This document shows positions 14,698 to 24,198 of a stretch of DNA of 64,000 bases, one piece after another. The position numbers were made by a program, and so were the translations under genes. The stretch spans positions 372 to 64,371 of the forward strand of contig CAIKKG010000005.1 of assembly GCA_903827975.1 (NCBI GenBank), written 5' to 3'. Each line of letters opens with the position of its first letter. Position 1 is the stretch's first letter. This stretch comes from an uncultured bacterium. GTDB lineage: Bacteria > Patescibacteriota > Minisyncoccia > UBA6257 > GWB1-50-10. The notes under the pieces are model-generated. The model did not search any database. It worked only from the letters and a program-made list of their open reading frames with translations, and was not told the origin of the DNA.

Positions 14698-14769
14698 TCC
14701 CCGGTAGCTCAGTGGTAGAGCGGCGCGCTGTTAACGCGATGGTCGTAGGTTCGAATCCTACCCGGGGAG
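14698..14769 (+). tRNA. tRNA-Asn (anticodon GTT); CCA not encoded
   Basis: acceptor TCCCCGG/CCGGGGA, D-arm GCTCAGTGGTAGAGC, anticodon loop CTGTTAA, T-arm GTAGGTTCGAATCCTAC. Confidence 0.85.
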
Positions 14770-14771
14770 CA
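14754..14771 (+). repeat. attL core: 3' end of tRNA-Asn (aatcctacccggggagca), repeated exactly at 24181..24198
   Basis: 18/18 identity between the two copies, same orientation. Confidence 0.65.
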
Positions 14772-16326
14772 CGATAGGTTGAGAGGGCACGAAAGTGCTC
14801 TCTTTTCCTTTATTAGAGCCACCTTTCTCCAGTTCGAGAGTTTCATTTACTCGTGGCATCCATTCTGCCAAAAAGCCGAAGGCTTTTGTGTATTCTGGCT
14901 TTATTGTTCCTTGCAAAACAGAGATGTTCGAGAAAGCGTAAGCCAACAGCAATCGGCGCTCTTCCGTAGTTGCTTTATCGCTCTGATAGATCTTCCCAGC
15001 TCTCAATGCCAGCTCGTGAATCGCCACCCCAACTTTGTAATATTCAGTATTGTCCGAATTTAACTTTCTAAGAGATTCAGTTAAGATCTCTCGCTCTTGT
15101 CCAAAACTCTCAACCCTCTGATCATAGAACTCTGTTGAAATTCTGCCATCCAATTTATCTTCGTACATAATCTTTAGACGTTGCTGGATGCGCTGGAGGC
15201 TCGCATTAATGCCATTCACCTGCGCTTCGTGAAGTTCGATCTCCTTGCCGTGGCTCTCCTTTAGGGCTTTGTTGAGAATACCCATAATCCTCTCGTTTTT
15301 AGGCGCTACAGAGCTAATTTGAGCCATTAGGTGGCTTTCTACGTCCTCCTGTCGTATGTACTTCCTGTCGATGGCTAGCTGTGCCTTGCACTGTTTACAC
15401 CCGCCATACCATTGTCCTTTTTGGAGTTCCCAAGTGACCGTCTTTTTACAACTGCCGCAAAAGACTTTGCCTCTTAATTCCTTGATGTGCTTAACGTGGT
15501 AAGGGGCGCTTGATCGGGTTAACTTGGCTTTAACCTGCTCAAACAAATCACGAGAAATAATGGGTTCTTGTTTACCTTCGTACTCTTTATCCTTCCATAT
15601 AAATTTACCGTAATAGAATGGGTCTGAAAGTAGCGCGTGGATTTTACTTTTCACAACTCTGCCACCTCCACGACTACGAAAGCCACTCTCGTACATTTTC
15701 TCTCCCAAAGAAACTGTTGAGTAATTTCCCGTCGCGTAAAGTGTAAACATCTCTCTTATGCGTGGAGCAACATTTTCATCTATCACGTGGATCTTGTGAC
15801 CTTTTTCACCAATGGTTTTATATCCTAACGGTGGTTTAGTTGGAAGCCAACCTTGTGCAGTCTTCTCTTTCTGACCTTTCTTAACTTCTTCCGATAAGTT
15901 ATTGGTATAGAAGCGAGCCATAGCCACTTTCATATCCCATACAAAGTTTTCGTGTGCTCGCGTGTTTTTACTGACAACGAAGTTTTCTTTTACGAAGTGG
16001 ATTTCACGGCTTGCTCCTTCTAATATCCAGTCACTCGCAGTTGCCGCATCCTTAAGATTACGCGTTAAACGATCAATCTTCTCACACAGAATGACATTGA
16101 TGTTTTTATTGGTGACGTATTGGATCATCTCAATAAACATCTTTCTTATTTGTTTTCCACTTGCTGACTCTGTAACTTTGTAGATCTTTACCAGCTCAAA
16201 ACCTTTTTGTTCTGCATAATCCTTCAAGAGTTTTTCTTGCGCCTCCAAAGAATATCCTGTTTCCTCTTGTTCTTTTGAGGATACACGAGCGTAGATTACT
16301 GCTTTAATTTTCTTAGTAGTTTCCAT
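14758..16326 (-). CDS. large serine recombinase (resolvase/invertase catalytic domain + recombinase domain + zinc-ribbon/coiled-coil)
   Basis: N-terminal AVIYARVSSKEQ catalytic-Ser motif; 522 aa; CGSCKK...CKQCK zinc ribbon; 3' end overlaps tRNA-Asn 3' end. Confidence 0.85.
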   Translation of the reverse strand: METTKKIKAVIYARVSSKEQEETGYSLEAQEKLLKDYAEQKGFELVKIYKVTESASGKQIRKMFIEMIQYVTNKNINVILCEKIDRLTRNLKDAATASDWILEGASREIHFVKENFVVSKNTRAHENFVWDMKVAMARFYTNNLSEEVKKGQKEKTAQGWLPTKPPLGYKTIGEKGHKIHVIDENVAPRIREMFTLYATGNYSTVSLGEKMYESGFRSRGGGRVVKSKIHALLSDPFYYGKFIWKDKEYEGKQEPIISRDLFEQVKAKLTRSSAPYHVKHIKELRGKVFCGSCKKTVTWELQKGQWYGGCKQCKAQLAIDRKYIRQEDVESHLMAQISSVAPKNERIMGILNKALKESHGKEIELHEAQVNGINASLQRIQQRLKIMYEDKLDGRISTEFYDQRVESFGQEREILTESLRKLNSDNTEYYKVGVAIHELALRAGKIYQSDKATTEERRLLLAYAFSNISVLQGTIKPEYTKAFGFLAEWMPRVNETLELEKGGSNKGKESTFVPSQPIVLPG

Positions 16327-16356
16327 ATTGGCTCAGTTTAATTTTAACAGTTAAAG

Positions 16357-16587
16357 TTAATCATTAGTAGTATTTTCAGTGATTCCATTTGGCACTCTCT
16401 TGAGTACCTTGTAATAGCAATCTTGAAGAAACATACACATATCCTCCTGAATCTCTTTCTTTACCTCCTGAAAGAACTCGTCTGTCATTTCACCTATGAC
16501 ATCAAGATCTTCTTCTAGGTAATCGCGGCTAAGGATTGCTACAACATCAGGATCACTCCAACGATAATTTTCTCTTTCTTCGGTCAT
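16357..16587 (-). CDS. hypothetical acidic small protein
   Basis: 76-aa ORF tightly spaced between the RHH gene and the recombinase. Confidence 0.35.
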   Translation of the reverse strand: MTEERENYRWSDPDVVAILSRDYLEEDLDVIGEMTDEFFQEVKKEIQEDMCMFLQDCYYKVLKRVPNGITENTTND

Positions 16588-16597
16588 ATTTTTTTAA

Positions 16598-16834
16598 TTA
16601 AGATTGATAATTTGAGAAGAAGTGTTTGCAGATCTCATCGAGTAAGAAAGAGATTATTGTTCCTTCCGACTTGGAGAATTCCTTGAGCTTCTTGTGCCAT
16701 TTTTCACTGACTCGCACCTGCACTGTCTTCCGCTTTTCAGCTTTGCGGGCAAAGTATTTTCTGACTGCTTCGTTGTCCGCTTTTGCCTGTTCTATATCGG
16801 TGGATGTATAGAGTTTTTTCTGCTTTGTCGACAT
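16598..16834 (-). CDS. putative ribbon-helix-helix (CopG/Arc-like) DNA-binding protein
   Basis: basic N-terminus then TVQVRVSEKWHKKLKEFSKSEGTIISFLLDEI beta-alpha-alpha pattern. Confidence 0.4.
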   Translation of the reverse strand: MSTKQKKLYTSTDIEQAKADNEAVRKYFARKAEKRKTVQVRVSEKWHKKLKEFSKSEGTIISFLLDEICKHFFSNYQS

Positions 16835-17136
16835 ATTTTAAGAACACTTCTATTTCCCTCATCCCTGTCCTTGATGAGAGGCTGATAATGCTGTGTACGA
16901 GATATCTATTGGGGTTTCGACCTTTTCACCCTCAAGCGGTGAACGCCCAATACAGTTGCTCCCTGATGTGCAAATGAGGTCGCCCGTTGAGAAGTGTTCA
17001 CTCAGAGCGGGCGCTGGTATTTACACACCAAGCGAGTTGCAGTCGGTTTTTTTCAGGAGACTTACTGACGACTCCTGACATCTCGGTTGTCTCAAGGTTC
17101 AAACACCCAGATCTGCCTCGAATATATCGGGGCAGA

Positions 17137-17361
17137 TTAAGATTTTTGAGGCTCTGGTCGACTGTCAATTTTTGCGAGCAAGTCAAAATACGCCACAGAG
17201 TTCAGCAAGATCTCCGACGCGTCTTTGAGAGTCAGGACTACACCAAATTCTTCTTTGATGGCATCCTGAAATTCCTTAATTGTTTGCTCACTGACCATAG
17301 GATCATTAGACACGTTGACCCTATACGCTTTAAATACGCTTTTAGTATCTTTTGCAGTCAA
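17137..17361 (-). CDS. hypothetical small protein (start uncertain: TTG at 17361 or internal ATG)
   Basis: protein-like composition on the minus strand, versus the Arg/Cys-rich overlapping plus-strand ORF. Confidence 0.3.
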   Translation of the reverse strand: MTAKDTKSVFKAYRVNVSNDPMVSEQTIKEFQDAIKEEFGVVLTLKDASEILLNSVAYFDLLAKIDSRPEPQKS

Positions 17362-17362
17362 A

Positions 17363-17385
17363 AAAAGCCCTATTTAGGGCAATGC
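17363..17385 (-). terminator. rho-independent terminator after the wHTH gene
   Basis: minus-strand gccctaaatagggc followed by TTTTTTT. Confidence 0.55.
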
Positions 17386-17417
17386 GAGGAGGATATTAAC
17401 AGGAGCAAGAGCAGACT

Positions 17418-18044
17418 TTAGACAAAAGTCTTAATTACCTTGTATGGAGATTTTATACCGTATCCACTGCTTGATTTAGATTCAATAATATCTACCTTCA
17501 AAAAGTGATCTATGTTCTTCTTGATTTTACCTATTTCTGACCGTACGTTCTTTAGATCTTTACCGCCCAGATACTCTGAAATATCCTCCGTTCTTTGTAG
17601 ACCTACATTGTCGACAAGGTAGGTTAAAATTTTTAGACGCTCGCTATCTTCTCCAATATGGTAACAAAGTTTACTTTTATCGCCGTGCCAAAGATCTCCA
17701 TTTTTATCTAAATAGAGAATTGTGCTCGTACCATTGTTGGTAAGCCCTATCTCGCTCACTAATTCGGAAGCCCTTTCTCTGAAATAGCTAGAGAACCAGA
17801 TGTTATAGATATCGTAGTCTGGCTCTTCTTCATATTCAGCATCCTTTCCTGACCAGAACTCATATTTCTCAATGAGTCCCTTTTCTTTCAGGTTATCCAT
17901 AATGCGAATGAGATCTGCTCCGCTAACACCCTCACTCAACAGGTCATCTGCCTTAACCTCGATATGCCGCACCGTTTCTGCTCCCAATAAATGGGTTTGA
18001 AGCAGGTTATTGAGAACTATTGATATCTTGGCGTTCGCATCCAT
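17418..18044 (-). CDS. putative transcriptional regulator with C-terminal OmpR/PhoB-type winged helix and no receiver domain
   Basis: C-terminus LKILTYLVDNVGLQRTEDISEYLG...VRSEIGKIKKNI...SGYGI fits the trans_reg_C pattern; 12 nt downstream of the Type IIG gene. Confidence 0.45.
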   Translation of the reverse strand: MDANAKISIVLNNLLQTHLLGAETVRHIEVKADDLLSEGVSGADLIRIMDNLKEKGLIEKYEFWSGKDAEYEEEPDYDIYNIWFSSYFRERASELVSEIGLTNNGTSTILYLDKNGDLWHGDKSKLCYHIGEDSERLKILTYLVDNVGLQRTEDISEYLGGKDLKNVRSEIGKIKKNIDHFLKVDIIESKSSSGYGIKSPYKVIKTFV

Positions 18045-18055
18045 ATCGTTAATGC

Positions 18056-20809
18056 CTAACGGTCATCTTTAACAGAGCTCCGAATTCTGTATAGGTCTAG
18101 TAAAGATTTCTTAATGCTTTCTTTCAAATTAAGAAGATTGATCGGGGTTAAGACAGCAACGTCCAAGGCATCACGATCAGTCTTTGTAAGCTCATCTTCA
18201 AGATTAAAAATACCCCTTCGTTTAATAGCATTAAACTTGTCGAGAATGTCCTTTTTTTGATCCTCGCTATATAGCGATGGATTGAGAATAAATAAATCCT
18301 TCTCTAGTTTGTCCTTACTAAGATCAAGAGCTCCCTCACCTCTGCCTGTGCCTAAAGCCTCAATGTAAAAAAGACCGAGAGTGCTATTCAGTAAGGCGTG
18401 ACAGAGCTCAACATCAGTGCTTAGATCTTTGCGCGTAAAACGAACTAGTCGTTGATTTACGAAGGTTGGTTCTGCAAACTTAGCGAAGAACAATCTATCG
18501 CCAAAGTTAATACTCGTGACAATTTCAGCCATTGTAGTGGGTGTCATTGTGTACCACTCTATATTTGGTCTTCGAAGTGCTAAAGGAAGGGCAATGCCCG
18601 TGCCGTTAGTTTTAGACTCAAAACTCTTTATCCAATTTATAGCCCCACTTTTACCAGCTCTTTCTAGCTCATCAATAGATTCAGTACAACAAAACGCCAC
18701 AGCGTCTGGTTCAGCAGTCAGGTTGGTTATGGATCGAGGGGTTCTTAAAACTGGCTTTAAAAATTCTGGCTCAATCGAGTGTGTTCCTTCGGGATAAAAC
18801 ATATCATCCCAGCCTCTGCGTTCTCCTCTTGCTATCTCAAATAGAGTGGAAGCTTTTACAAGGAACGGCTCGAGAGCAGTGATCCAATTATTATCAGTAA
18901 ATAAACTATTTAAATTTAAGCCAAATTTTTTGAGTGCAGTAATATCGGAATTAGAATACGTATTGATATGAATATCATTTTCATCAACCGCCTCTTTTAG
19001 TGAGACCAGAGCGGTAAGTTCACTCATATCTTGATCGCTTATGTGCTTAAGTGGTCGTTTGGTTACAACAAATTTAGTTTTTAGAGCCTCGTCTTTAGCG
19101 GGCGTTGACTTCTTCTTCAGGATCACGATATTTGTAACGACTTTGGCGTTATCAAACCATCTTCCACTGCCTGAAGTAATCACTGACTCGATGTGATAAA
19201 AAGCACTAAGATTTTCAAAGAAGCCTTCTCCCCATTTCGTTCCAAGCCACGAGTTTGAAATTATGAACGCCAAAGTCCCTTCATTCCTAAGAAGTTTCCA
19301 GAAATAAAATGGTAAATATGCATACAAATCACTCCTGCCATCTAGTGCAGTATTTGAACCTAAGGTAGCTTCTATAAAATCATTGATGCTTGGAGCTTCT
19401 GGATTTAGAACCTCCATATCCTCTTGTTGCACAAATGGTAAATTTGAAATAATGCAATCGAATTCAGGTATCTTTACCTTAAGCAAACTCCCATTGTAAG
19501 GATCGCGTAAATCAATTTCTTTACCGACTTGAATTTTTGTCGCGTCTTCTTTAAAAACCTGCAAGACTTTTCCCATTGCTTCGGGATCAAGCATATTAAA
19601 CATTGCCATCTGCAATGGAAGAGAAAACTTGTCACTTGCCCAAGTTGTTTTTAAGGCATCCTCAACACCCAAAACAGCTTTCTTTTGCACGAGAATCTCC
19701 CTTGCGATTGTTCCACTTCCACAACAAGGATCGATAGCTATCGCATTTTTATTCTTCATCGCAAGACCCACAATGAACTTTGCTAACTCATTTGGGGTTG
19801 TAAACTGTCCTGCAAACTTTCTTTTGTTTCTATATACGGTGTGACCGATTAGATCGTGCAAGAGAGTTTTTTCAATATTCTGGAAGTTCAGTGCCTTCAG
19901 AAAACCATTGAAATCAATCATATCCGCCCAAACTTCTGCGGAGATATATTTTTCGGTTGGCTGTGTTTGAAATATATTCCAAAAATCCACCTTCTGACTA
20001 ATGTCTTGAAAGACCTGCAACCCATCTTGCAAGGAAGTTGTTGAGTCTATTTGGTCAATTTTATTTGCGTCGGATTGGTAAGATTTTAAAATATGAGCAA
20101 AAAGAAATTTGTTTATGAGATAGATTAAGTTCATCCTTGAAAGAACGACAAACTTGTCGGTTTCTTCTGGGTGATCGTTCTTGGCATATCTCCACCACAG
20201 ATTTACCTCTGCTTCGATATCAGAATCCTTCACGGATTCATTTTTTAGATTCTCTATATAGCTTCCAATATTCCTATCAATCAACTTTGAGACTTGTTCG
20301 CTATTTAAAACACTAACTACAGACGTGGCTTTTATTTGTCCGCTTTGGATATAATCGTTTAAATCATTAAGTATTTTATGCAACTCAATCTTGATCTCAT
20401 CAGCTTTTTGCTCAACCTCATCTCGAACGTGAATGTGTGATAGCCCATCCCAAATCTTAACTTTTTCAAGAGATCCATCTTCATTAATTTTGTATAGAAC
20501 AGCAACTGAAACATTCCAAAGCAAGAAGCTGTTGAGAGAAAGTAGATCTGCCTTCTTTTTTGCATTAAGAATAAACTCTTGATCGTTGATATCCGTATCA
20601 GGCATCTTTAACTCCCAGCCTTGTACAATTCTTCCCTTTATTTCATCACCAAAAAGCAATACGTCAGGAAAAAGTGACTTCTTGTTTTCCTTCAACGTGT
20701 TTTCACCGCCCGCACGTTTTATTGAGGTGTTTTTAGTTGAAGCCCAGAGATTAATCTCGCTAATTAGATCTATTGCCCAACTTCTCTCATTGTAATTAAT
20801 TGTTGGCAT
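18056..20809 (-). CDS. Type IIG (MmeI-like) restriction-modification enzyme: N-terminal PD-ExK nuclease + gamma-class N6-adenine methyltransferase + C-terminal target-recognition region
   Basis: 917 aa (MmeI is ~919); N-terminal FPDVLLFGDE...GWELK (PD...ExK); motif X/I FTTPNELAKFIV...IDPCCGSGTIAREI; motif IV IISNLPFVQ (non-canonical NLPF). Confidence 0.65.
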   Translation of the reverse strand: MPTINYNERSWAIDLISEINLWASTKNTSIKRAGGENTLKENKKSLFPDVLLFGDEIKGRIVQGWELKMPDTDINDQEFILNAKKKADLLSLNSFLLWNVSVAVLYKINEDGSLEKVKIWDGLSHIHVRDEVEQKADEIKIELHKILNDLNDYIQSGQIKATSVVSVLNSEQVSKLIDRNIGSYIENLKNESVKDSDIEAEVNLWWRYAKNDHPEETDKFVVLSRMNLIYLINKFLFAHILKSYQSDANKIDQIDSTTSLQDGLQVFQDISQKVDFWNIFQTQPTEKYISAEVWADMIDFNGFLKALNFQNIEKTLLHDLIGHTVYRNKRKFAGQFTTPNELAKFIVGLAMKNKNAIAIDPCCGSGTIAREILVQKKAVLGVEDALKTTWASDKFSLPLQMAMFNMLDPEAMGKVLQVFKEDATKIQVGKEIDLRDPYNGSLLKVKIPEFDCIISNLPFVQQEDMEVLNPEAPSINDFIEATLGSNTALDGRSDLYAYLPFYFWKLLRNEGTLAFIISNSWLGTKWGEGFFENLSAFYHIESVITSGSGRWFDNAKVVTNIVILKKKSTPAKDEALKTKFVVTKRPLKHISDQDMSELTALVSLKEAVDENDIHINTYSNSDITALKKFGLNLNSLFTDNNWITALEPFLVKASTLFEIARGERRGWDDMFYPEGTHSIEPEFLKPVLRTPRSITNLTAEPDAVAFCCTESIDELERAGKSGAINWIKSFESKTNGTGIALPLALRRPNIEWYTMTPTTMAEIVTSINFGDRLFFAKFAEPTFVNQRLVRFTRKDLSTDVELCHALLNSTLGLFYIEALGTGRGEGALDLSKDKLEKDLFILNPSLYSEDQKKDILDKFNAIKRRGIFNLEDELTKTDRDALDVAVLTPINLLNLKESIKKSLLDLYRIRSSVKDDR

Positions 20810-21626
20810 ATGTTTTGATTTTCAACTTCGGATTTACTTCCTTGATGCGTTTTTCAGTAATAGAGATCAAATCTACTTTCTTTTTTTGATGCAGATCGGT
20901 CTCTTTATTTAGCTCTATTCCTACAAACTTTCTATCCTCCAAAGCAGCAGAGACCAAGAAACTTCCACTCCCAGAAGTATTATCTAGCACCAACTCACCT
21001 TTATTTGTGTATGTCCTGATCAAATACTGACCCAATTCAACTGGCTTTTGCGTAGGATGGTACACCTCACCTTCGCTTTCTGCTGTCTTAAAGTAAATAA
21101 CATCACTAGGGTAGCGCTTACCGTCACTTTTAACTTCTTGCGAGTTAAAATCACCATAACTGCCAGTAAGCTGGTTTTTCCTAAAGCCTTTGTTATACGG
21201 CTCACCCTCTGACATTTGAGGGTTGTAAGTAGGTTGGTATATTTTGTTTCTATAAAAAATACAAACATCCTCGTGTTTTCGTAGAGGCTGCTTTTTTGCA
21301 TTTAAGAAATTAGTCGCCTTGGATTTTACCCAAGAAAGTTTGTACTTAAATAGTGTTGTATTGCTCATAATAAGTTGAGCCGTAAAAACACCTTGTGAAG
21401 TAAGAGCGATGACGCCATTAGGCTTTATTATTCGTTCGTACTCCTTCCAAAGTTCTTCAAGGGGTATTATGCTGTCCCATTTGTTTTGGGTTGTACCGTA
21501 AGGCAAATCACACAAAATCATATCCACACTCTTATCTGGAAAGCGTGACATCACGCTCAAACAATCACCCTCAAATAGGCTGTTCTCTATTTGTTTTTTT
21601 GTAAGCTTTTTAGTTGGCATAATCAT
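20796..21626 (-). CDS. beta-class DNA methyltransferase (N6-adenine or N4-cytosine)
   Basis: motif IV DLPYGT precedes motif I NTSGSGSF (IV-then-I order means beta class); 276 aa. Confidence 0.8.
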   Translation of the reverse strand: MIMPTKKLTKKQIENSLFEGDCLSVMSRFPDKSVDMILCDLPYGTTQNKWDSIIPLEELWKEYERIIKPNGVIALTSQGVFTAQLIMSNTTLFKYKLSWVKSKATNFLNAKKQPLRKHEDVCIFYRNKIYQPTYNPQMSEGEPYNKGFRKNQLTGSYGDFNSQEVKSDGKRYPSDVIYFKTAESEGEVYHPTQKPVELGQYLIRTYTNKGELVLDNTSGSGSFLVSAALEDRKFVGIELNKETDLHQKKKVDLISITEKRIKEVNPKLKIKTYANN

Positions 21627-21796
21627 TTGATTGTTGTCTTTTTGAGAAAAATCTCAAACTCACTCTTGCCAATCCTGAACTCTTTTCCTATTTTATGAGC
21701 TCTAATTTTGTGGGCTTTGATGTAGCGATAAATGGTCATTATATTGACCTGCAACTTGTCCGCTAAATCTTGAGCTGTATAAAATTCTTTATTCAT
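21623..21796 (-). CDS. excisionase-family HTH DNA-binding protein (57 aa), possible R-M controller or Xis; not in the ORF track
   Basis: own translation MNKEFYTAQDLADKLQVNIMTIYRYIKAHKIRAHKIGKEFRIGKSEFEIFLKK matches the excisionase/MerR-type HTH pattern; ATGA overlaps with both neighbours. Confidence 0.5.
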   Translation of the reverse strand: MNKEFYTAQDLADKLQVNIMTIYRYIKAHKIRAHKIGKEFRIGKSEFEIFLKKTTIK

Positions 21797-22557
21797 ATTC
21801 TCTTGAGCTGTTCCATAACTCTACCCGCTAAATCCCTCTTATCAATCATAAATGCGTCCCACTTATTACTATCCTTCTTTTGCTTTCCAGAAACAAAACC
21901 GAGTAAGTCGTTTTTGTCTTTGTGCGCCATACGAATGAAGTCTGGAGCTGGCACAAACCAGACATAGTCGTGGACATCGCCCTTAGACGTGTCGAACAGA
22001 CAAAAAACAAAAGCCATTGAATAATTGTCTACTGCGCTTCGCTGTTTAACCGTTGCAACAAACGGACGACTAAAGTCTTCGCTAAAATTACTTTTAATCT
22101 GTATGTAAATAGATTTTAGACTCCCTTTTTCTTTTACAATGAGATCTATACCTTCGTCATCAGAGAGGGGGCGGTAGCACGAAAGATTAGTGCCATAGAG
22201 CAGGACTAGTTCCGAGACACGCGCTTCAACAATGTTTCCTTTTTGCACAGACATCAAAGTGTCTGAAACTTTATATTCTTTTTCTTCGTGCTCTTCGCTA
22301 AGTTCCTCCTCTTGCTTTATTGTCTTTATTGTCTCGTTTAGTGCAAAAGTACTTGGAGCTGTTTTAATAAAAAGTGAACCTGATCCTTTTTTATTTACAT
22401 CCACTACAAGTTGGGCGTTCATTGTAGCCGCAGGAGTTTTGCCAGCAGTTTTAAGCCAACCACGCTTTAGGGCAATTTTTGTAATCTCCTCGTAGTGGAG
22501 TGGTTTATCAGCTTCTTTGAGGATTTCATAGGCAACGCCCTTAAACGTGTTTACCAT
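21793..22557 (-). CDS. HARE-HTH domain fused to a PD-(D/E)xK restriction-endonuclease-like domain
   Basis: N-terminus FKGVAYEILKEADKPLHYEEITKIALKRGWLKTAGKTPAATMNAQL = HARE-HTH pattern; C-terminus DDEGIDLIVKEK...IQIK nuclease-like. Confidence 0.5.
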   Translation of the reverse strand: MVNTFKGVAYEILKEADKPLHYEEITKIALKRGWLKTAGKTPAATMNAQLVVDVNKKGSGSLFIKTAPSTFALNETIKTIKQEEELSEEHEEKEYKVSDTLMSVQKGNIVEARVSELVLLYGTNLSCYRPLSDDEGIDLIVKEKGSLKSIYIQIKSNFSEDFSRPFVATVKQRSAVDNYSMAFVFCLFDTSKGDVHDYVWFVPAPDFIRMAHKDKNDLLGFVSGKQKKDSNKWDAFMIDKRDLAGRVMEQLKRI

Positions 22558-22619
22558 AGATTTAATTATACTTTACAATGCTTTACACAACAATTAGATA
22601 TGTGGATAATGATTGATAT

Positions 22620-23435
22620 ATGGCACTTATAGCATCAAGAATATTGAGTGATCGGCTAGATTTTGAAACTCATCTCAAATACGCTTCTCGACTCGCCAAG
22701 CTTACAACAGGACTTTCTGTTACTTGTTCTATAAAACCTCTCTTAGTCAAATCAAAAATTACAAATCTTCAAAATAAATCAAAACTGATTGAGCTTACAA
22801 AAAAATCAATAAAGGATGAGCACGAGATAGTTCAGTTTGATAAGGAGTATTCCACTGCTTCGGTATTATGGTTACCCATTAAAACTTATTACTTAACCTA
22901 CCACCTGCTCTGCACAATCGAGTACCTTTTGGGTGGGAATGAGGGATCTTTGTCAGAAAAGCATTACAAGTGTATGGATATTTTCACAAAAAGGCTCTCG
23001 GATGGAACTTTAAAATTCAGTGAACCATTACTAAATAGTGTTTTTGATAAATCAATTCTAAATTTTCGAACAACATCAGGTGAACACCTAAGAACAGGTG
23101 TTTCGGATGAGATTATCTACAAATTGCTAATGAAAAAAGTTGCCAACGACAAGATAGAGAATTTTAAGGTCGCCAATGGCATACCAGACGTGAGAAGCCT
23201 TAAGAATAAGGAACGAGTGGAGAAATTTAAAAACTCTTTAACAGTATCCGTGTTCGACTTTTTTCACCTGATGCGACTAAGAATGAATTACCGAAACTTT
23301 GATTTTGTTGATTCTGTAACGTCATCGAATACAAAGGCGTATTTTGAGGAGTATTACAAAGCGTCAGGTTATTTCTATACAGCCCTCAATAACCTAAAAA
23401 ACAAGATAATAACTGACATTTCAGTTGGAAGCTGA
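22620..23435 (+). CDS. hypothetical protein (Lys-rich, helical; candidate abortive-infection/defence accessory)
   Basis: 271-aa ORF divergent from the R-M operon; N-terminal R-x5-H (RLDFETH); no confident family assignment. Confidence 0.35.
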   Translation: MALIASRILSDRLDFETHLKYASRLAKLTTGLSVTCSIKPLLVKSKITNLQNKSKLIELTKKSIKDEHEIVQFDKEYSTASVLWLPIKTYYLTYHLLCTIEYLLGGNEGSLSEKHYKCMDIFTKRLSDGTLKFSEPLLNSVFDKSILNFRTTSGEHLRTGVSDEIIYKLLMKKVANDKIENFKVANGIPDVRSLKNKERVEKFKNSLTVSVFDFFHLMRLRMNYRNFDFVDSVTSSNTKAYFEEYYKASGYFYTALNNLKNKIITDISVGS

Positions 23436-23939
23436 ATGTTCTAATTCGGTATACTTTTTCGCAAAATTACCCATCGCTCTTTTGATAAGTGCTATCTGTT
23501 CTGGGTCAATACTGTGTCTGTCTGATACTTCACCTGTGTGATGCACCTGCGCCCGTGTTGAGAACTCTAGGGGACGCTTACGTTCAAGATACTTTAAAGC
23601 AAGGTCAGCATCGTGCTCTGCCGCGGCTACAACACGTTTACGTAGGACAAAAGAGACTGCGTGCCGTAACTGATCAATTCTGTCCGAAAAGTCGGAGTTT
23701 TGCTTACAGAAATCGTAGTACGTATTTCTTGAAATGCCCGCGTAAAGACAGGACTCTTCAACCGTACAGTCATATACAAAAGCGTGTTCTAGTTTTCGGA
23801 CAACCTCCTGCGTCATTACAGTAGGTCTTCCTGTCCTACCGTGTTTCGGGGCAATCTTGCCCTTAAGCACATAGGCATTGCGCTTGGCGTACTGCTCAAC
23901 CTCACTTACTTTTGGAAATATTATCTTTTTTCTCGTCAT
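23421..23939 (-). CDS. phage terminase small subunit-like (HTH) protein
   Basis: GRPTVMTQEVVRKLEHAF...GISRNTYYDFCKQNSDF matches the TerS GRPTKYT...GIS..T.Y.W pattern. Confidence 0.5.
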   Translation of the reverse strand: MTRKKIIFPKVSEVEQYAKRNAYVLKGKIAPKHGRTGRPTVMTQEVVRKLEHAFVYDCTVEESCLYAGISRNTYYDFCKQNSDFSDRIDQLRHAVSFVLRKRVVAAAEHDADLALKYLERKRPLEFSTRAQVHHTGEVSDRHSIDPEQIALIKRAMGNFAKKYTELEHSASN

Positions 23940-24034
23940 ATAAAATTAGTTCGCCAAAGCCAACAACCTACCTATGGTTGCCACGTGATAGTCAGGATTA
24001 GGGTAGATACTGACCCAATCCATAGTTCGAAAAG

Positions 24035-24146
24035 CGTCCCTCCACGCGAGCTAATGAAAATTAAAACGGCATAAATGCCGTTTTAGTTTTTATCTCGGGT
24101 AGTATTCGAACCGAAGGTGCCCAAAAACAAAGAGCTGAGCGATTAT
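24035..24146 (+). repeat. ~110-bp repeat, copy A (inside island, next to attR); contains hairpin aaaacggcat..atgccgtttt and an inverted tRNA-Asn 3'-like segment ctcgggtagtattcgaacc
   Basis: near-identical to 25006..25140. Confidence 0.65.
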
Positions 24147-24180
24147 GTTTTTGGCGCATCTCGACCGAAGAGAGAGGCGA

Positions 24181-24198
24181 AATCCTACCCGGGGAGCA
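24181..24198 (+). repeat. attR core: exact copy of tRNA-Asn 3' 18 nt
   Basis: aatcctacccggggagca. Confidence 0.65.

Follow-up and report, generated by a model that had tools for sequence, protein, structure and literature searches.

Type IIG restriction-modification (RM) enzymes share a layout in which nuclease, methyltransferase and target-recognition domains follow each other in a single chain. MmeI, of the Type IIL family, protects its host through its own one-strand methylation, and to our knowledge MmeI-type systems have no separate methyltransferase; BpuSI, which recognises GGGAC, has two partner methyltransferases. BseMII is among the enzymes that have been proved to combine both activities in one chain; it is of the N6-methyladenine (m6A) type and is accompanied by a separate methyltransferase (M) gene (PMC3039593, Table 2). 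Its nuclease site has been assigned to the PD-(D/E)XK type and is closely similar to that of Eco57I (PMC3045609), and BseMII and BspCNI both recognise CTCAG (PMC3949710; bioRxiv 10.1101/2022.11.07.515285). Here we analyse a stretch of 64,000 nt (hereafter the window) from an uncultured bacterium of the Patescibacteriota (contig CAIKKG010000005.1, positions 372 to 64,371), which encodes a Type IIG protein of 917 amino acids (aa) at 18056-20809 (− strand). We consider it highly probable that this protein is a BseMII/BspCNI-type enzyme belonging to a three-gene cassette with CTCAG as likely target, that the sequence NLPF of its methyltransferase motif IV is normal, that the cassette is cargo of an island integrated at a tRNA-Asn gene, and that the winged-helix gene next to the enzyme gene belongs to the core of this island.

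Family placement of the 917-aa enzyme

The 917-aa protein matches the REBASE-derived PADLOC profile REase_MTase_IIG (PDLC03606) with a score of 1021.7 bits, its residues 3-915 covering positions 3-933 of the 935 positions of the profile. Pfam searches detected N6_Mtase, Eco57I and, weakly, TaqI_C (residues 750-836). None of the domains MmeI_N, MmeI_hel, MmeI_Mtase, MmeI_TRD and MmeI_C was found in the protein by Pfam, even at E ≤ 10, while the same search recovered MmeI_Mtase and MmeI_hel in a positive control, a methyltransferase encoded at one of the related loci described below (L013). A search of protein databases led to 1746 homologues. The best 120 of them are mostly 906-936 aa long and 42-72% identical to the window protein (plus one identical entry), and many come from metagenome-assembled genomes (MAGs) of Patescibacteria, others being found in Bacillaceae, in Sulfurospirillum and in an Altiarchaeia MAG. 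One relative, 45% identical over 100% of the length, carries the name 'Restriction endonuclease BseMII'.

A sequence search of the PDB with the 917-aa protein returned M.BseCI alone (E = 5.5e-5), a match too weak for placement, and we therefore used structure prediction and Foldseek. The AlphaFold2 model, built with 58 homologues as input (mean predicted local distance difference test score, pLDDT, of 86.5), has the Type IIG enzyme BpuSI (PDB 3S1S) as its best match in the PDB (E = 9e-25), followed by the gamma-class enzymes CamA and M.BseCI and then by DrdV and PglX, with MmeI (5hr4) only at rank 50 (E = 3e-12). The similarity to BpuSI extends over the whole chain, with the same order of nuclease, helical linker, gamma-class methyltransferase and recognition domain, although the two proteins share only 13% sequence identity. 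From its N to its C terminus, the single chain of the window enzyme thus consists of a PD-(D/E)XK nuclease, a linker of helices, an N6-adenine methyltransferase of the gamma class and a TaqI-like domain for target recognition.

The catalytic motifs were compared in an alignment of 117 full-length homologues (MAFFT, fast settings) that includes proteins down to 42% identity. In the nuclease motif (P48-D49...E66-L-K68; 20606-20668, − strand), P48, D49, E66 and K68 are invariant in all 117 sequences. In motif I of the methyltransferase (DPCCGSGT, residues 360-367; 19709-19732, − strand), D360, C363, G364, G366 and I are likewise invariant, the proline being present in 115 and the threonine in 116 of the 117 homologues. 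This conservation points to a working-type enzyme of the BseMII/BspCNI family, i.e., a Type IIG (IIS/IIC) enzyme. Like BseMII and BspCNI, it is predicted to be a single chain of the ~910-935-aa class that begins with a PD-(D/E)XK nuclease and contains an m6A methyltransferase of the gamma class, its gene being next to a separate small methyltransferase gene; the cassette avoids CTCAG, the site of these two enzymes. It differs from them in that it is ~45% identical to the relative named BseMII and is encoded in a low-GC genome (with closest relatives in the Patescibacteria, of the Candidate Phyla Radiation, CPR), on an integrative element at tRNA-Asn. The reading as a fragment of a Type I HsdM or of a BREX PglX was rejected, as the full-length match to the Type IIG profile and the nuclease motif speak against it.

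An earlier note on this DNA had assigned the enzyme to the MmeI class. The features on which it relied (the 917-aa open reading frame (ORF), PD...ExK, DPCCGSGT, NLPF and an adjacent beta-class methyltransferase) are all real, as verified in the translation, and the general single-chain layout and similar size are indeed shared with MmeI. This layout is, however, common to all Type IIG enzymes, and the assignment itself is contradicted by the lack of MmeI matches in Pfam, by the much better structural match to BpuSI and by the separate methyltransferase, which turned out to be a conserved partner.

The cassette, its motif IV sequences and its likely target

The gene of this partner (20796-21626, − strand) overlaps the start of the enzyme gene by 14 nt and encodes a 276-aa N6-adenine methyltransferase (Pfam N6_N4_Mtase, E = 4e-25; PADLOC MTase_II, 218 bits). 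Its motif IV, DLPY (residues 40-43; 21498-21509, − strand), precedes its motif I (DNTSGSGS, from residue 215), which places it in the beta class. Relatives that are 84% identical to it are named 'M.BspCNI', names that were given on the basis of similarity by the submitters of MAGs. A third gene, absent from the earlier note, encodes a 57-aa HTH_17 protein (21623-21796, − strand; Pfam HTH_17, E = 6e-11), a likely controller of the cassette; it lies between a HARE-HTH gene and the methyltransferase gene and overlaps each of them by 4 nt.

In all six distinct related loci that encode an enzyme homologue (L001, L002, L004, L018/19, L020/21 and L022), a homologue of the 276-aa methyltransferase is adjacent. 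Its gene is directly upstream of the enzyme gene in the first five and convergent with it in L022, a Neobacillus chromosome. In L018/19, an HTH_17 gene (67% identical) precedes the methyltransferase gene, and in L020/21 the two are fused. The three genes thus form a conserved cassette with the order HTH_17, beta-class methyltransferase and, as last gene, Type IIG enzyme. By analogy with M.BseMII, the 276-aa protein would methylate both strands and protect the host, and by analogy with R.BseMII, the 917-aa enzyme would bind CTCAG, require S-adenosylmethionine (AdoMet), cut about 10/8 nt downstream and methylate one strand, while the HTH_17 protein would likely act as transcriptional controller of the cassette.

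Motif IV of the enzyme (residues 456-459; 19433-19444, − strand) reads NLPF, encoded by AAT TTA CCA TTT, and departs from the textbook consensus (N/D/S)PP(Y/F). It differs in this from the NPPY of MmeI and from the motif IV of BpuSI, which is the canonical NPPY (PMC3817140). The earlier note had proposed on this basis an MmeI-family enzyme with an aberrant and possibly defective methyltransferase, from whose toxicity the adjacent beta-class methyltransferase would rescue the host. The presence of a separate methyltransferase next to the enzyme gene would agree with such a scenario. In our alignment, however, N456, L457 and P458 are invariant in 117 of 117 homologues, position 459 being F in 114 of them and Y in the three others, and the motif DLPY of the partner is present in 120 of 120 relatives among the matches listed. 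This invariance in both the enzyme and the partner families indicates that the leucine is a selected signature of these families, and neither a lesion nor a sequencing error. A read error hiding NPPF, which the note had also envisaged, can be discarded for the further reason that the leucine codon TTA is two substitutions away from any proline codon, such that no single error could restore the proline. Furthermore, the BseMII-type design, as reported, normally unites the two activities in a single protein and includes a separate M gene (PMC3039593). With the placement outside the MmeI family, these data make the scenario of a defective enzyme extremely improbable.

A second alternative is that the enzyme no longer methylates, its methyltransferase domain having kept only the binding of AdoMet to switch cleavage allosterically, and that protection is provided by the 276-aa methyltransferase alone. 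The companion is in fact always present and is more conserved than the enzyme in the same loci (63-88% versus 38-72% identity), and in RM.BpuSI the binding of AdoMet stimulates cleavage independently of methyl transfer (PMC3817140). Yet the Asn, the Pro and the aromatic residue of motif IV, which are not needed for AdoMet binding alone, are invariant in the family, and BseMII is listed among the enzymes proved for both activities (PMC3039593). Moreover, TFB1M and DIMT1, adenine-N6 RNA methyltransferases of the KsgA/Dim1 type, have NLPF and NLPY cores and are catalytically active (PMC10915109). We thus regard a purely allosteric role of the domain as very improbable. TFB1M and DIMT1 were the sole precedent recovered when we searched the literature for NLPF in DNA methyltransferases. 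Our preferred reading is that NLPF in the enzyme and DLPY in its partner are the normal catalytic motifs of their two families, as judged from the alignments, and annotators should not flag N-L-P-(F/Y) in this Type IIG family, or D-L-P-Y in the partner, as defects. The leucine occupies the second position of motif IV in both methyltransferases, so that the same departure from the PP consensus is observed in two unrelated folds that act on one DNA site.

The recognition site was approached through CTCAG, a hypothesis that was taken from the names of the relatives before any site was counted. The pair formed by the methyltransferase and enzyme genes of the window contains no CTCAG/CTGAG, for 6.4 expected, and the whole element contains 3 for 18 expected (P = 1.7e-5), whereas the host flanks show no depletion (102 sites for 74-120 expected). 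Pooling seven non-redundant cassettes gave 4 sites for 31.8 expected (P = 7e-10), which makes CTCAG the third most depleted of the 512 pentamers. These counts speak indirectly, without proving it, for CTCAG as the most likely recognition site of the cassette. The enzyme itself has at least 1746 relatives, in a large family whose prototypes are characterised and commercially sold, and its NLPF is the norm there; the CTCAG target is a testable prediction.

The tRNA-Asn island and its winged-helix gene

The cassette lies in a block bordered by two exact copies of an 18-bp direct repeat, AATCCTACCCGGGGAGCA, at 14754-14771 (attL core, the left copy) and 24181-24198 (attR core, the right copy), both on the + strand. 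The repeat is composed of the last 17 nt of a tRNA-Asn(GTT) gene (14698-14770, + strand; detected by ARAGORN and by Rfam with 71.1 bits), the target of integration, and of one flanking base. A repeat search found these two exact copies in the window and none in 100 shuffles. The block is therefore an integrative element inserted in the 3′ end of tRNA-Asn(GTT), which spans about 14754-24198, i.e., 9.4 kb. All genes but one between the repeats are on the − strand, and the sign of the GC skew is inverted across 14-24 kb.

At the left border, the element encodes a large serine recombinase of 522 aa (14758-16326, − strand; Pfam Resolvase, E = 4e-26, and Recombinase, E = 4e-14, with a weak match to Zn_ribbon_recom; PHROG integrase, E = 1e-76). 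The 3′ end of its gene overlaps both the end of tRNA-Asn and the att core, and the same junction between tRNA and recombinase is present in the related loci L008-L010, L013 and L014. This recombinase, 54-81% identical in the related elements L005-L017, would integrate and excise the island at tRNA-Asn. It is followed, from left to right, by genes for small proteins of 76 aa, 78 aa (Arc-like) and 74 aa, a hairpin, the 208-aa winged-helix gene, the Type IIG enzyme, its companion methyltransferase, the HTH_17 gene, a HARE-HTH/PD-(D/E)XK gene, a 271-aa gene on the + strand, a 172-aa gene and attR. In the direction of transcription, the part conserved between related elements reads winged helix, 74 aa, Arc-like 78 aa, 76 aa and recombinase.

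The 208-aa protein is encoded by the first gene of this conserved core (17418-18044, − strand), at the position given in the earlier note but 11 nt, and not 12, downstream of the enzyme gene. Foldseek searches of the PDB with its AlphaFold2 model (mean pLDDT of 84.8) returned as top matches almost exclusively OmpR/PhoB effector domains, with a probability of 1.00 (e.g., 1kgs); the C-terminal domain of NsrR (5dcm) superimposes with a TM (template modelling) score of 0.77 and a root-mean-square deviation of 1.8 over 97 residues. The ~100 C-terminal residues (~106-206; 17427-17729, − strand) are predicted to form a beta-sheet platform, three helices and a C-terminal beta-hairpin wing, the fold of OmpR/PhoB-type winged helices. 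At the sequence level, the 208-aa protein does not reach the Pfam threshold for Trans_reg_C, and two of nine homologues reach an E value of 0.0025. Pfam detected no Response_reg domain in the protein, and residues 1-100 of the model lack the (beta-alpha)5 topology; they form instead a small predicted domain of helices and strands that differs between subgroups of homologues. The receiver-less OmpR/PhoB-type winged helix described in the earlier note is thus confirmed by the predicted fold. The origin of the protein from a response regulator by recent loss of the receiver was considered and rejected, because the N-terminal half forms a small domain of its own, with conservation inside each subgroup of homologues.

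The predicted fold of residues ~106-206 recalls other proteins with a Trans_reg_C domain and no receiver, such as ToxR and those of AfsR/SARP type. The 208-aa protein differs from these by its score below the Trans_reg_C threshold, by its N-terminal half, a small variable alpha/beta domain that corresponds to no known family, and by its association with mobile elements rather than with two-component systems. Its close relatives are only nine, and a profile search led to 528 cluster representatives, most of which share only the ~100 C-terminal residues and have variable N-termini. Larger proteins that share the winged-helix domain gave no match in Pfam, and no relative of the 208-aa protein was found in viral contigs.

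The genomic contexts of these relatives link the 208-aa gene to the recombinase. In L005-L017, homologues of the 74-aa gene and of the 78-aa gene come after the homologue of the 208-aa gene at a constant distance, and the serine recombinase comes next. Among 18 further metagenome loci encoding more distant relatives, eight extend at least 2.5 kb downstream, and each of these eight has a serine recombinase gene on the same strand; none of the loci carries a BseMII-type enzyme. Conversely, no 208-aa gene was found in the related loci that encode homologues of the enzyme. Since homologues of the 208-aa protein elsewhere travel with the recombinase and never with this enzyme, the gene belongs to the backbone of the island, and its adjacency to the Type IIG gene comes from the insertion of cargo at that junction. 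The partnership with the Type IIG enzyme suggested in the earlier note is therefore not borne out by co-occurrence. On the other hand, the co-transcription proposed in the same note is plausible: because the gap of 11 nt contains no predicted terminator and a terminator-like GC hairpin followed by a T run is predicted just after the 208-aa gene (17367-17380, − strand), the two genes are probably transcribed together.

Several points weigh against the combined reading given at the outset. The link to BseMII and BspCNI was drawn through a REBASE-derived profile and through similarity-based names from MAG submitters, not through the sequences of the prototypes, and activity, methylation and excision at this locus are predicted from sequence. 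The element being devoid of any CATG, CCGG and GGCC, the depletion in CTCAG could partly reflect a general avoidance of sites, and the distant cassettes of L002 and L004 retain one to two CTCAG sites. Finally, the 208-aa gene has the same direction as the enzyme gene, lies 11 nt from it and is followed by the terminator-like hairpin, and in L013/L014 and L016/L017 the start of its homologue overlaps the stop of the gene for an MmeI-like methyltransferase; the 208-aa gene may thus have some functional coupling to the cargo.

These last observations are those that would be expected if the 208-aa protein were devoted to regulating the defence cargo next to it, with a controller-like function in the timing of restriction versus modification, and were not a regulator of the element. 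The constant position of its gene at the junction between cargo and core and, in L008-L010, its divergent orientation relative to hsdM across a short intergenic region also fit with this hypothesis. Nevertheless, the DNA-binding domain is conserved (~50-55% identity) across unrelated cargo, including OLD/UvrD and helicases that are not RM systems, which makes operators shared by the cargo unlikely, and the core genes and the recombinase co-vary with the 208-aa gene. Besides, a conserved HTH_17 gene is part of the RM cassette itself, and the enzyme homologues of the related loci are in no case accompanied by a 208-aa gene. A regulator dedicated to the cargo is thus improbable, and the 208-aa protein would most likely be a DNA-binding regulator of the core or excision genes of the element itself. 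A repeat search for candidate operators within the element gave, besides the att repeat, only short pairs of low identity and of doubtful meaning.

The island and the host flanks bear distinct signatures of restriction avoidance. Between the repeats (14772-24180), CATG, CCGG and GGCC are all absent (for 28, 11.5 and 14.2 expected sites, respectively), as is CCAGG, and GATC is normally represented (46 for 34 expected). The host flanks are strongly depleted in GATC (70 for 193 expected), in TCGA (100 for 188 expected) and in GTCAA/TGACA. Together with the inverted GC skew, these differences give the island a foreign composition.

Related islands and other genes of the element

Small islands located at the 3′ end of a tRNA gene between direct repeats, with a large serine recombinase at one end and a conserved core beside variable defence cargo, recall tycheposons, SCC-like (staphylococcal cassette chromosome-like) elements with Ccr serine recombinases and defence genes, and phage satellites; the terminase-small-subunit-like gene at the far end of the window island is a further resemblance to phage-inducible islands. 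In contrast to these tRNA-targeting islands, no replication or relaxase gene is evident in the window island, whose mobility is predicted from its sequence, and the related loci that bear an organism name come from a Woesearchaeota MAG. Searches of Pfam, NCBIfam and PADLOC gave no family for the core gene set; among PHROGs there was a match for the 78-aa gene alone, and no published description of the set was recovered.

At least six types of cargo are present beside the same core in the related islands. They include a Type I RM system with a KAP NTPase, an OLD protein with a UvrD helicase, very large AAA_11/12 helicases, and a PLD-SNF2 protein with an MmeI-like methyltransferase. The latter cargo, found at 3323-10004 of L013 and 2-6023 of L016, encodes a PLD-nuclease/SNF2-helicase of ~1160 aa and an MmeI-like methyltransferase of 1020-1068 aa that has no nuclease domain and is preceded by an HTH_17 gene. 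The island that carries the Type I RM system and the KAP NTPase (L008-L010) also abuts a tRNA-Asn(GTT) and was deposited under a MAG of Candidatus Woesearchaeota, a DPANN archaeon; this placement could be due either to a binning error or to spread across domains. Scanning a genome collection with a single protein yielded only four loci.

The winged-helix protein might mark an undescribed family of small islands that target tRNA-Asn, are moved by a serine recombinase and occur in relatives of CPR bacteria and in the Woesearchaeota MAG. Defence cargo would be swapped in them at a fixed junction, the cargo often being a methyltransferase-containing system translationally coupled to the winged-helix gene; the winged-helix protein would couple expression of the cargo to the excision or transfer state of the island, and the terminase-like gene would make the latter a hitchhiker resembling a phage satellite. 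Taken as a whole, this proposal is rather unlikely. An island family with a fixed core and interchangeable defence cargo is nonetheless a more interesting by-product of this analysis than the enzyme itself, and the delimited core offers a way into the defence genes and mobile elements of lineages that have been little studied.

The closest relatives of the RM cassette, in L018 (72%) and L020 (63%), also adjoin large serine recombinases (9751-11253 of L018 and 13161-14717 of L020). These recombinases are only 27-31% identical to that of the window and have no winged-helix core beside them; the same RM cassette was thus captured by more than one recombinase-borne island. In a phage collection, only distant matches to the methyltransferase domain were found, in haloviruses.

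The three small core genes are all on the − strand. The 76-aa gene (16357-16587) has a homologue that is 58% identical in L005; the 78-aa gene (16598-16834), conserved in L005-L017, encodes an Arc-like ribbon-helix-helix protein (PHROG Arc-like repressor, E = 3e-6), and the product of the 74-aa gene (17137-17361) is 45-63% identical in all related elements. A stretch of ~300 nt between the last two (16835-17136) contains no conserved ORF. In public annotation, the identical contig has a 144-aa ORF on the + strand (16987-17421), opposite the 74-aa ORF; this call is probably spurious, since it is the 74-aa ORF that is conserved at the protein level in all related islands. The Rfam scan found only the two tRNAs.

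The 254-aa HARE-HTH protein (21793-22557, − strand; Pfam HARE-HTH, E = 3e-20) is encoded by the first gene of the same − strand gene string, its stop overlapping the start of the HTH_17 gene. Its C-terminal part weakly matches PDDEXK_5 and PHROG 29029, indicating a PD-(D/E)XK-like domain. The gene is absent from the related cassette loci and represents separate cargo, and its product may be a separate nuclease that senses modification. The 271-aa protein (22620-23435, + strand) matched no family in Pfam, NCBIfam, PADLOC or PHROGs.

The 172-aa protein (23421-23939, − strand) resembles terminase small subunits (PHROG 4102, E = 6e-23). Its gene and that of the recombinase occupy opposite ends of the island, and no other packaging or replication gene was seen in the element. 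The gene terS is similarly placed in phage-inducible chromosomal islands. A 17-nt segment (24096-24112), situated ~85 nt inward from the right border of the element, is an inverted copy (94% complementary) of the T-arm region of tRNA-Asn (14748-14764) and may be part of the attachment-site architecture of the recombinase.

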